Below are positions 60,882-62,360 of a DNA stretch of 64,000 nt, in pieces; positions within the stretch are counted from its first letter, which is position 1, and every line of letters begins with the position of its first letter. The stretch lies in sequence record OM630585.1, one strand, 5' to 3'. The position numbers and the translations under genes are program-made. The stretch comes from Escherichia phage vB_EcoM_LNA6. The notes beneath the pieces were generated by a model. The model ran no database searches, had not been told where the DNA came from, and saw only the letters and a program-made list of their open reading frames with translations.

Positions 60882-60959
60882 GGGAGATTGACGGTAATTG
60901 GTAAACCTATCTCGCTTAGAACGAGATGTTTGAGGGTTCGAATCCCTTGTCTCCTACCA
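60882..60959 (+). tRNA. tRNA with Leu anticodon TAG in class I (short variable arm) scaffold
   Basis: Acceptor gggagat/gtctcct, anticodon stem tctcg/cgaga, loop ctTAGaa, T-arm gagggTTCGAATccctt, discriminator A, CCA encoded. Confidence 0.55.
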
Positions 60960-60966
60960 AATTAAT

Positions 60967-61042
60967 GCAGGTGTAGCAAAATGGTTATGCGGCTGACTCT
61001 TAATCAGTAAGACGACGGGTTCAATTCCCTCCACCTGTACCA
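60967..61042 (+). tRNA. tRNA-Lys (anticodon CTT)
   Basis: Acceptor gcaggtg/cacctgt, anticodon loop ctCTTaa, T-loop TTCAATT, CCA encoded. Confidence 0.55.
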
Positions 61043-61048
61043 GACATT

Positions 61049-61124
61049 GGGGTCATAGTTTATATGGTTAAAATTCGAGTTTTGCAAACTTGGGAACTGA
61101 GTTCAATTCTCAGTGACTCCACCA
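61049..61124 (+). tRNA. tRNA-Ala (anticodon TGC)
   Basis: Acceptor ggggtca/tgactcc with G3:U70 wobble (Ala identity element), loop ttTGCaa, T-arm ctgagTTCAATTctcag, CCA encoded. Confidence 0.7.
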
Positions 61125-61130
61125 ATTAGT

Positions 61131-61205
61131 GCATCCATAGTTTAAACGGGAAAATTACAGTCTTCCAAACTGAGGTTGAGGGTTCGATTCCCTCTGGATG
61201 CTCCA
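61131..61205 (+). tRNA. tRNA-Gly (anticodon TCC)
   Basis: Acceptor gcatcca/tggatgc, anticodon loop ctTCCaa, T-arm gagggTTCGATTccctc, CCA encoded. Confidence 0.7.
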
Positions 61206-61211
61206 AACAAT

Positions 61212-61288
61212 GCTGCTTTCGTATAATTGGCTATTACACATCCCTTGTAAGGATGGAAATGCAGGTTCGAGTCCTGTGAGCAGCACCA
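61212..61288 (+). tRNA. tRNA-Thr (anticodon TGT)
   Basis: Acceptor gctgctt/gagcagc, anticodon stem catcc/ggatg, loop ctTGTaa, T-loop TTCGAGT, CCA encoded. Confidence 0.7.
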
Positions 61289-61383
61289 ATTCAGAGGTCA
61301 AGTGAAAGACCGCTGGTGTCAACTGAAGACCGTAACAAATTCCACGGAGTTGAGTTAGCGGCACAACTTCAGACCTCTTTCAC

Positions 61384-61458
61384 ACTCGCTTAGTTTATAT
61401 GGTAAAACATCACCCTTACAAGATGAAGAAAAAGGTTCAAGTCCTTTAGTGAGTACCA
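61384..61458 (+). tRNA. tRNA-Val (anticodon TAC)
   Basis: Acceptor actcgct/agtgagt, D-stem gttt/aaac, anticodon loop ctTACaa, T-arm aaaggTTCAAGTccttt, CCA encoded. Confidence 0.65.
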
Positions 61459-61459
61459 T

Positions 61460-61537
61460 GTTCCAGTATCCCAATTGGCAGAGGATGCAAGCTCAAACCT
61501 TGTACTAGTGACGGTTCGAATCCGTCTTGGAACACCA
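61460..61537 (+). tRNA. tRNA with Leu anticodon CAA in class I scaffold
   Basis: Acceptor gttccag/ttggaac, anticodon stem gcaag/cttgt, loop ctCAAac, T-arm gacggTTCGAATccgtc, discriminator A, CCA encoded. Confidence 0.55.
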
Positions 61538-61542
61538 ATTTT

Positions 61543-61618
61543 GCAGGATTAGTTCAAATGGATAGAGCAACAGTCTACGAAGCTGTTAATAGGGGTTCGA
61601 ATCCCTTATCCTGCGCCA
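61543..61618 (+). tRNA. tRNA-Arg (anticodon ACG)
   Basis: Acceptor gcaggat/atcctgc, anticodon stem acagt/gctgt, loop ctACGaa, T-loop TTCGAAT, CCA encoded. Confidence 0.7.
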
Positions 61619-61637
61619 ATTTAAAGAGGCTATTTAG

Positions 61638-62195
61638 ATGAGATATTTGAAGTATGCTTCATGGATTTTCTTAGCTTTGTTAGAGCCGTTTGCAGCAATC
61701 TTAGCAGTTATCTTAGCACCTTTTGTAGTTCCATTCTACAGTGAGAAGAAAGGACACTTACCTTTCGGGTTCAGATGGATGGAGACATATGACAACCCAA
61801 TTGATGGTGATGAAGGTCACGTTAAAAGATGGGCTAATATTAGATGGATTGGTAAACTAGGTGTCTACATGCAAAGAGTCGGATGGCTCTGGAGAAACAA
61901 AGCTTATAACTTCTCTTACCATGTATTAGGAAGAGATGTAAAAGATGTTACTAAGTGGAAAGGTAATATCAACGTAAGTTCTGACCCTGAAGATAATCAG
62001 ACTGGTTATCTCCTAATGTGGAACAGTAATGCTTGGGGATTATTCGCTTTTATCCCATCAATTAAAATCTTTGGTAAACAATTCTACTGGAGAATTTATG
62101 TTGGATGGAAACTAAAAAGTGTTGTCCCAGAAGAAAGAGCATTCTCAAGGGAAAGAGTTATGTTGGCATTCTTTATTCATCCACTGAGAAAGTAA
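61638..62195 (+). CDS. membrane protein (hypothetical)
   Basis: 185 aa, hydrophobic N-terminus; embedded in tRNA array. Confidence 0.4.
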   Translation: MRYLKYASWIFLALLEPFAAILAVILAPFVVPFYSEKKGHLPFGFRWMETYDNPIDGDEGHVKRWANIRWIGKLGVYMQRVGWLWRNKAYNFSYHVLGRDVKDVTKWKGNINVSSDPEDNQTGYLLMWNSNAWGLFAFIPSIKIFGKQFYWRIYVGWKLKSVVPEERAFSRERVMLAFFIHPLRK

Positions 62196-62203
62196 AGATT
62201 TAA

Positions 62204-62279
62204 AGGGGATTAGTTTACAAGGTTAAAACCTCGGTCTTTGAAATCGAAGAAGTTGGTTCAATTCCAACATCCCCCGCCA
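62204..62279 (+). tRNA. tRNA-Gln (anticodon TTG)
   Basis: Anticodon stem tcggt/atcga, loop ctTTGaa, T-arm gttggTTCAATTccaac, acceptor (a)ggggat/atccccc, CCA encoded. Confidence 0.6.
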
Positions 62280-62281
62280 AT

Positions 62282-62360
62282 GCTCCATTACTCCAATTGG
62301 CAGAGAGGCCAGACTTAAAATCTGTGTTATGTATCGGTTCGAATCCGATATGGAGTACCA
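62282..62360 (+). tRNA. tRNA with Leu anticodon TAA in class I scaffold
   Basis: Acceptor gctccat/atggagt, anticodon loop ctTAAaa, T-arm atcggTTCGAATccgat, discriminator A, CCA encoded. Confidence 0.55.

Follow-up and report, generated by a model that had tools for sequence, protein, structure and literature searches.

Leucine tRNA genes without a long variable arm in the tRNA cluster of a Felixounavirus

In textbooks and in the recent primary literature, a long variable arm is treated as a fixed feature of bacterial leucine transfer RNA (tRNALeu), with Streptomyces as the lone exception, one that needs a specialised leucyl-tRNA synthetase (LeuRS). Short-loop tRNALeu are already known from two settings, animal mitochondria and Streptomyces, and the type I tRNALeu of the latter have been presented as unique among prokaryotes (PMC6614811). 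A third precedent is man-made: a review of the work of Asahara (1993/1998), Tocchini-Valentini (2000) and Larkin (2002) describes arm-less tRNALeu and in vitro-selected RNAs that were leucylated, the arm and the anticodon being dispensable for E. coli LeuRS as long as A73 and the D/T-loop contacts, including A15:U48 and G18G19, were intact (PMC9976931). Here we describe three genes with leucine anticodons (UAG, CAA and UAA) and no long arm in Escherichia phage vB_EcoM_LNA6 (sequence record OM630585.1), using “the window” for the whole 64,000-nucleotide (nt) stretch of DNA that was analysed. A full-text literature search, with most subscription journals outside its coverage, found no description of arm-less phage tRNALeu or of their frequency in phages.

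The three genes lie on the forward strand and comprise Leu-UAG (60882–60959; 78 nt with CCA), Leu-CAA (61460–61537; 78 nt with CCA) and Leu-UAA (62282–62360; 79 nt with CCA). ARAGORN, run on the window, called all three without a long arm and with exactly the coordinates and anticodons of the original prediction, and all three exceed the 29-bit gathering score of the Rfam tRNA model RF00005 (44.5, 43.6 and 47.5 bits, respectively). Each call is a cloverleaf with a 7-base-pair (bp) acceptor stem, a canonical T arm with T-loop UUCGAAU, A73 and a genome-encoded CCA, with the anticodon centred in a 7-nt loop opening with C32 U33; the acceptor stem of Leu-UAG includes the wobble pairs G1.U72 and U7.G66, and that of Leu-UAA includes G1.U72. 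The acceptor stems, T arms and A73 had likewise been read correctly in the original prediction, and its 5-nt variable loop held for Leu-UAG (UGUUU) and gave way to 6 nt in Leu-CAA (ACUAGU) and 7 nt in Leu-UAA (GUUAUGU), so that short loops stood for all three. None of these loops can form an arm. The hallmark of class II tRNAs is thus absent and the genes are not canonical class II tRNALeu; the tRNALeu genes of E. coli K-12 are 85–87 nt long. A hidden long arm or intron was considered and rejected, given that the genes measure 78–79 nt including CCA and that other tRNAs lie 2–8 nt away.

The window belongs to a Felix O1-like phage of the genus Felixounavirus: the 3.1 kilobases (kb) around the three genes are 97–98.6% identical to LF82P2, allfine, nataliec and Felix O1, and GenBank records of this genus already annotate three tRNA-Leu at matching positions. 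The Felix O1 paper names its tRNA-Leu genes without comment on their structure, reports tRNAscan-SE Cove scores of 52.2 (Leu-TAG), 46.2 (Leu-CAA) and 57.9 (Leu-TAA), and flags two tRNA pseudogenes, neither of which is one of these three (PMC3185647). A mistaken manual anticodon assignment, which the original prediction had allowed for, is refuted, as the assignment is shared by ARAGORN, Rfam and tRNAscan-SE (PMC3185647) and by the GenBank annotation of relatives.

We compared the three tRNAs with the identity elements of the host synthetase. E. coli LeuRS is reported to read A73, A15:U48, G18G19, A20a and D/T-loop contacts, and neither the anticodon nor the long arm (PMC9976931). This set is present in all three phage tRNAs, each of which contains A73, U8, A14, A15, U48 directly 5′ of the T stem, G18G19 at the spacing of E. 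coli tRNALeu, and A20a, with U8:A14 and A15:U48 seen as sequence and predicted as tertiary pairs. Leu-CAA and Leu-UAA combine U8-A9 and C13 with a 3-bp D stem (UCC/GGA and CUC/GAG, respectively) and an 11-nt D loop (CAAUUGGCAGA), which is the exact architecture of the E. coli tRNALeu from leuZ, leuX, leuW, leuV and leuU (loop N-AAUUGGYAGA in the phage, N-AAUYGGUAGA in E. coli), and G18G19 lies four bases 3′ of A14. The D arm of Leu-UAG is only partly of this type, retaining the A14-A15-U-U-G18-G19 spacing along with A20a, U48 and A73. Because their D arm is that of class II tRNALeu, a point not noticed in the original prediction, we conclude that the three are tRNALeu that lack the arm, and not ordinary class I tRNAs equipped with a leucine anticodon. 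They have kept exactly what E. coli LeuRS reportedly reads and to have lost what it reportedly ignores, and the A73 and D/T-loop contacts needed in the engineered RNAs are exactly the feature set that they retain; while those RNAs were laboratory-made, the phage genes would be a natural counterpart kept by selection. Marks of other synthetases are missing: of the two others that are anticodon-independent, AlaRS is excluded by the lack of G3:U70 and SerRS by the lack of a long arm and of G73, and those for Ile, Lys, Met, Val, Arg and Gln rely on anticodon bases that these tRNAs do not have (PMC9976931). For the orthologues in Shigella phage Sf14, the Leu isotype model of tRNAscan-SE scores highest (67.4, 49.1 and 60.2; PMC12482277).

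Measured against canonical class II tRNALeu, represented by the five E. coli genes above and the Leu-UAG of phage T5, the phage tRNAs share the Leu anticodons, A73, U8:A14, A15:U48, the 3-bp D stem, the 11-nt loop N-AAYUGGYAGA, the G18G19 spacing and, as in some isoacceptors, G1.U72. They differ in the variable region (5–7 nt versus 13–17 nt) and, in Leu-CAA and Leu-UAA, at positions 9 and 13, which are A and C, respectively; long-armed tRNALeu have G9 in 107 of 108 cellular and 150 of 154 viral cases. With the type I tRNALeu(CAA) of Streptomyces coelicolor they have in common a stemless variable loop of about 5 nt, coexistence with long-armed tRNALeu, a single LeuRS and the setting of a bacterial cytoplasm, and in that tRNA U8:A14 is important for charging (PMC6614811). 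The S. coelicolor tRNA, however, has C48 (loop ACAGC), its synthetase makes no use of A73, and a Streptomyces-specific LeuRS domain is needed (PMC6614811), whereas the phage tRNAs combine U48 with A73 and must work with an enterobacterial LeuRS. A specialised enzyme was sought: the 10 of the larger window open reading frames (ORFs) covered by a Pfam scan gave no synthetase match, and the consulted text of the Felix O1 paper names none (PMC3185647); the phage tRNAs must use the ordinary LeuRS of the host. Animal mitochondrial tRNALeu(UUR) is also class I, lacks the long arm and bases its identity on A73 and A14 (PMC9976931), but its dedicated LeuRS makes further contacts, with the D loop and the anticodon stem, and the core of the tRNA is floppy and degenerate, while the phage tRNAs have a full bacterial-type elbow (G18G19 with UUCGAAU) and a host LeuRS of the cytoplasmic type. 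With a bacterial tRNALeu D arm, U48 and A73 all kept, the phage form differs from both the mitochondrial and the Streptomyces types.

Conservation within the subfamily was high. Leu-UAA matches at 99% identity or better in 215 of 263 phage records, with the surrounding 3.1 kb at 80–99%, and Leu-UAG is at least 88% identical across Felixounavirus genomes. Erwinia phage phiEa21-4 (Kolesnikvirus, a sister genus in the same subfamily) encodes arm-less Leu-CAA, Leu-AAG and Leu-UAA with the UA-NNC-CAAYUGGCAGA-GNN D arm found in the window, on stems that are entirely different yet still paired. Given the conservation of Leu-UAA and the re-paired stems of phiEa21-4, the arm-less state is old in Ounavirinae and maintained by selection.

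Leu-UAG occurs in Felixounavirus as two alleles of about 90% identity. Between window positions 60908–60927 and the corresponding segment of Salmonella phage FG1m (PP068123.1; locus L006, 4447–4466) there are 8 differences, all in the anticodon stem, with three pairs swapped on both sides and one pair turned into U.U, a pattern that may reflect gene conversion or selection for stem diversity. FG1m also carries a hybrid gene (L006, 4999–5076), derived from Leu-CAA on its 5′ side and from Leu-UAA on its 3′ side, in which the acceptor and T stems contain mismatches; the two genes share GGTTCGAATCCG, and recombination inside this segment seems to have removed Arg-ACG, the DUF7338 ORF and Gln-UUG. 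As for origin, recent capture from the host followed by deletion was rejected, the genes being 63–72% identical to E. coli tRNALeu, no more than to unrelated tRNAs of the cluster, and whole-sequence similarity was uninformative on where the Leu genes came from.

We surveyed tRNALeu more widely by scanning GTDB species genomes and IMG/VR viral contigs with a single pattern, which called for the D loop AAYTGGYAKA, a correctly spaced NAR anticodon and GTTCGA and left the length of the variable region free; the counts cover the first 120 loci per scan and tRNALeu matching this one D-loop/T-loop motif, and IMG/VR contigs can include host flanks. Variable loops of 5–6 nt were found in 42 of 133 viral motif matches and in 3 of 121 from genomes. 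Among ARAGORN tRNA-Leu calls, the arm-less form (variable region of at most 7 nt) accounted for 59 of 190 in viral contigs (31%) and 5 of 128 in genomes (4%; Fisher P = 2 × 10−10). This phage bias was confined to leucine: at the surveyed loci tRNA-Ser was long-armed in 51/51 viral and 6/6 genomic cases, and tRNA-Tyr in 21/22 and 3/3. The viral arm-less share reached 40% in tRNA clusters (at least 3 neighbours within 1.5 kb) as against 10% for solitary genes, a contrast which suggests that some long-armed “viral” tRNALeu are host flanks. Variable arms of 9–12 nt were present in 18 of the 190 viral tRNALeu, and the GTDB sample held no tRNALeu arm between the 5-nt class and 11 nt. On one IMG/VR contig (3300023184_003735), an arm-less Leu-UAA has as its neighbour a tRNA-Leu(CAA) (locus L010, 12714–12795, minus strand) whose variable region is 10 nt long and unpaired, an apparent intermediate between the long-armed and arm-less forms. 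The five cellular arm-less cases consisted of two actinomycete genes, which are solitary UAA genes in Gordonia (locus L240, 491–566) and Herbiconiux (locus L279, 2732–2806), and three adjacent genes (CAG, UAA and GAG) adjoining tRNA-Tyr on one contig of a Planctomycetota metagenome-assembled genome (JBCCHQ010000007.1; locus L294, 3550–3813), a trio that could be a phage-derived array. All five have U8-A9 and the CAAUYGGCAGA D arm, as in the window.

From the loci of both viral scans we assembled 167 distinct arm-less viral tRNALeu, here with a variable region of at most 8 nt and in most cases of 5 nt. A73 and U48, two positions that the search pattern left unconstrained, were each present in 166 of 167, compared with 57% and 34%, respectively, in 1117 non-Leu class I viral tRNAs at the same loci. 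A 3-bp D stem was found in 145 of these tRNALeu and an 11-nt D loop in 134. One 74-nt architecture is shared by 108 of the 167, and within it 98.1% of bases were paired at 20 stem positions, with 4–7 pair types at most of them, compared with 43–46% when partners were slid by one; the 98.1% is partly built in, as ARAGORN selects cloverleaves, while the A73 and U48 figures are not. The D arms came in two flavours, U8-A9 with C13 (two window tRNAs, phiEa21-4, LpeD and the actinomycete genes) and U8-G9 with G13 and ...AUA (T5-like and Aeromonas phages). A9 occurred in 95 of 172 arm-less and 2 of 262 long-armed tRNALeu, and its near confinement to the arm-less form suggests that the core was repacked after arm loss.

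A further departure lies next to the anticodon. The anticodon loop of Leu-UAG, CUUAGAA (60914–60920), has A37 and not G37, the m1G37 site. In the survey, tRNALeu reading CUN codons had G37 in 64 of 65 cellular cases, and A37 in at least 43 of 85 arm-less and at least 24 of 75 long-armed viral cases; with A37 this frequent, many phage tRNALeu may not be substrates of TrmD.

BLAST with the window tRNAs reached unrelated phages and placed arm-less tRNALeu in four further phage groups: Aeromonas phage AhP_Mru1 (Demerecviridae; UAG, CAA and UAA, 77 nt each), Lactobacillus phage LpeD (Herelleviridae; UAG, CAA and UAA), Escherichia phage TrudiRoth (Epseptimavirus; UAA and UAG) and Acinetobacter phage P1 (Saclayvirus; UAG). 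T5 and TrudiRoth offer a direct comparison, since in both a near-identical tRNA-Ala is followed by a slot for Leu-UAG, filled by a long-armed 85-nt gene in T5 (locus L009, 11625–11709) and by an arm-less one in TrudiRoth (locus L334, 8997–9073). A plain deletion of the arm between the two was rejected: the genes are dissimilar throughout, and the difference is therefore one of cassette replacement. In its T arm the TrudiRoth Leu-UAG is closely similar to its Felixounavirus counterpart, a hint that coliphage lineages have exchanged such genes.

We then asked what the cognate codons mean in phage proteins, and aligned the phage NrdA (19746–21980) with 20 homologues of 48–58% identity. At its 26 UUA, UUG or CUA positions, 71% of homologue residues were leucine and leucine was the majority residue in 20 columns; the figure was 58% at CUU, CUC and CUG positions. 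These codons thus stand at conserved leucine positions and mean leucine, so recoding is unlikely. The phage apportions its leucine codons as UUA 23%, UUG 16%, CUU 30%, CUA 9.5% and CUG 16%, as opposed to approximately UUA 13%, UUG 13%, CUU 10%, CUA 3.7% (about 4%) and CUG 50% in E. coli (Kazusa table). The shares of UUA, UUG and CUA are all higher in the phage, and its codon use fits a role of the three genes in tRNA supply.

On this evidence we favour, with a probability of roughly 0.8, the reading that the three genes encode working compact leucine isoacceptors that lack the long variable arm and are charged by the host LeuRS; compact isoacceptors were the first alternative of the original prediction, and the identity elements, the NrdA codons and the conservation speak for it. 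The genes are probably transcribed with the rest of a 26-gene tRNA cluster, given consensus-level promoter and terminator matches, and host tRNA-processing enzymes would trim the transcripts, whose CCA is already encoded. Host LeuRS would then add leucine on recognising A73 and the shape of the elbow and core, made up of U8:A14, the Levitt pair A15:U48, G18G19 at a position peculiar to tRNALeu within a large D loop, and A20a, and confusion with tRNA-Ser would not arise because there is neither a long arm nor G73. The UAA tRNA is predicted to read UUA and UUG, the CAA tRNA UUG, and the UAG tRNA CUA together with other CUN codons, all codons that are used far more by the A+T-rich phage than by its host, whose major tRNALeu reads CUG. 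We think that LeuRS can do without the arm and that this is probably why it was lost, whereas a long arm is needed by SerRS, and phage tRNA-Ser and tRNA-Tyr keep theirs; deletions may have been tolerated in tRNALeu only and then fixed in compact, fast-evolving phage genomes, which would explain why the loss is seen in tRNA-Leu only, repeatedly, and in phages.

Several observations weigh against this reading. The most direct comes from the one arm-less bacterial tRNALeu for which a charging test has been published, the type I tRNALeu(CAA) of S. coelicolor, which E. coli LeuRS failed to charge; according to that study the E. coli enzyme accepts type II tRNALeu only, and earlier work cited there ascribes to its leucine-specific domain a preference for large variable loops (PMC6614811). 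The presence of C48 instead of U48 may explain that failure, and U48 and a used A73, the two elements missing from the S. coelicolor type I system, are kept by the phage tRNAs. Leucylation of the phage tRNAs by the host enzyme is something we infer from their identity elements, with the conserved leucine positions of the cognate codons as the sole indirect support, and this itself counts here. At the level of structure, the D arm of Leu-UAG is atypical (3-nt connector UGA, stem C.U/G-C/G-C/U-A, loop AAUUGGUAA), and Leu-UAA has a weak anticodon stem of 4 bp plus a C27.U43 mismatch. In single-sequence folding, the cloverleaf was the minimum-energy fold for Leu-UAG only, the other two not folding as cloverleaves, and z-scores of −1.4 to −1.6 were weak and uninformative; support for the cloverleaf is therefore comparative rather than thermodynamic. 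To these we add the restricted sample and single motif of the survey and the host flanks in viral contigs.

The alternative that survives best concerns why the arm was lost rather than how the tRNAs work, and is compatible with charging by LeuRS. Here arm loss would be adaptive and not neutral erosion, with the compact shape, perhaps together with A37 in Leu-UAG, allowing escape from an enzyme that singles out long-armed tRNAs, either a nuclease or a modifying toxin, and belonging either to a host defence or to the phage's own machinery for host shutoff. The roughly 8-fold higher frequency of the arm-less form in viral contigs than in genomes would suit such an explanation, as would the whole-cassette replacement at one syntenic slot in T5 and TrudiRoth and the restriction of the differences between the Leu-UAG alleles to the anticodon stem. 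There is precedent as well, in that phage tRNAs are reported to rescue infection from tRNA-cleaving defences (PMC11555353), and human SLFN11 is reported to target the type II tRNAs for Ser and Leu (PMC13191261). On the other hand, our literature search brought up no nuclease from bacteria that acts specifically on tRNALeu or on long-armed tRNAs, an enzyme directed at type II tRNAs would still hit the tRNA-Ser and tRNA-Tyr that keep their arms in the same phages, and the arms of viral tRNALeu form a continuum of lengths (9–12 nt in 18 of 190) that looks like gradual erosion. We therefore regard adaptive loss as a minority explanation.

Far less probable, in our view, is that the genes are not for decoding at all and are decaying pseudogenes or tRNA-shaped RNAs that act as decoys or as processing signals in the cluster. 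Decay does occur nearby, as shown by tRNA debris within the cluster (59189–59250) and by the damaged acceptor stem of the FG1m hybrid, and the thermodynamic support for the cloverleaf is weak. Against this stand the near-perfect sequence conservation over hundreds of genomes, the compensatory changes that keep stems paired across genera, the encoded CCA, the intact anticodon loops, the near-invariant A73 and U48, and a set of anticodons that suits the codon usage of the phage.

Charging with another amino acid, also raised in the original prediction, or ambiguous charging, such that UUA, UUG and CUA would be recoded or mistranslated during infection, might draw on the missing hallmark of bacterial tRNALeu, on the failure of E. 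coli LeuRS with another arm-less tRNALeu (PMC6614811) and on the Sf14 Leu-UAG orthologue, for which the Ile2 (65.7) and Lys (63.4) models come close to Leu, but it is the least credible of the alternatives, with cognate codons at conserved NrdA leucine positions, with A73, A15:U48 and the tRNALeu D loop near-invariant in the 167 arm-less viral tRNALeu, and with the anticodon bases and other marks of competing synthetases absent, as set out above (PMC9976931).

More tentatively, the preferred reading of LeuRS-charged compact isoacceptors can be joined with elements of adaptive loss. Arm-less tRNALeu might be a hallmark of phage tRNA sets (about a third in our sample) that has arisen or spread repeatedly as LeuRS ignores the arm; enterobacterial LeuRS might be efficient in charging them, at odds with its published restriction to type II substrates; and the shape, together with A9 and A37, might hide them from nucleases or modification enzymes, of host or phage, acting on host tRNALeu. 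As a whole, we hold this combination to be speculative.

The three genes are part of a cluster of 26 tRNA genes, all on the forward strand (58323–63555), identified with ARAGORN and Rfam, with a gene order common to Shigella phage Sf14 (PMC12482277) and Felix O1 (PMC3185647). Spacers are frequently just 2–8 nt, and in the ARAGORN calls CCA is complete after 24 of the 26 tRNAs, with the Ser-UGA and Phe calls showing “CC” and “CA”. The cluster does retain class II tRNAs, and these served as internal controls: ARAGORN called long variable arms of 15 nt in tRNA-Tyr(GUA) (58816–58903), 20 nt in tRNA-Ser(UGA) (60537–60626) and 21 nt in tRNA-Ser(GCU) (63383–63475), all on the forward strand. A candidate promoter (58267–58296, forward strand) consists of TTGACA, an 18-nt spacer and TAAAGT, with TG, and lies 27 nt 5′ of the first tRNA; the region holds 17 promoter-like sites where 18.5 are expected from shuffled sequence, hence no excess, and we regard the promoter evidence as weak. 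A terminator-like hairpin followed by a T run 3′ of the last tRNA, Cys (63719–63736, forward strand), is a candidate transcript end.

Other features of the cluster are noted here for completeness. Three ORFs lie inside it (59989–60330, 61638–62195 and 62584–63381), the second of which, between Arg-ACG and Gln-UUG, encodes 185 amino acids on the forward strand, matches DUF7338 and is a putative membrane protein in the annotation of relatives. The debris at 59189–59250, in the 430-nt gap between tRNA-Asp and tRNA-Lys, consists of a T-arm-like GAAGGTTCGATTCCTTC and an acceptor-like tail followed by a 5′-half-like GTCGAGTTGGTGTAATGGTAGCAC, and neither ARAGORN nor Rfam calls a tRNA there. A weak tRNA-Sec-like match (23 bits, E = 0.4) covers 60443–60517. 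The 96-nt spacer between tRNA-Thr and tRNA-Val (61289–61383) opens with AGAGGTC and closes with its reverse complement GACCTCT, as judged by eye, and these ends could form a long-range hairpin or a processing signal. Directly 5′ of the cluster, an ORF of 471 amino acids (56742–58157, forward strand) matches DUF2828 and DUF7788, its counterpart in the FG1m record is annotated as an RNA-binding protein, and a sequence search against the PDB gave no match; its position beside the tRNA genes may be meaningful.

In contrast to the view of the long arm as a fixed feature, hundreds of genomes of E. coli, Salmonella and Shigella phages, and about 30% of motif-matching viral tRNALeu, encode an arm-less form under clear constraint. 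If these tRNAs are functional, nature would have repeated the laboratory experiment on the dispensability of the arm for LeuRS, and enterobacterial LeuRS would accept class I substrates that have A73, A15:U48 and a tRNALeu D loop. The genes would offer a direct test of the role of the arm in cells and compact tRNALeu scaffolds for engineering, and they may provide a structural marker by which tRNALeu encoded by phages can be told apart from those of hosts in metagenomes. They are also a lead on whether avoidance of tRNA-targeting enzymes underlies differences between the tRNAs of phages and hosts, and their interest would rise further if charging by enterobacterial LeuRS were demonstrated or if arm loss proved to be an escape from such enzymes.

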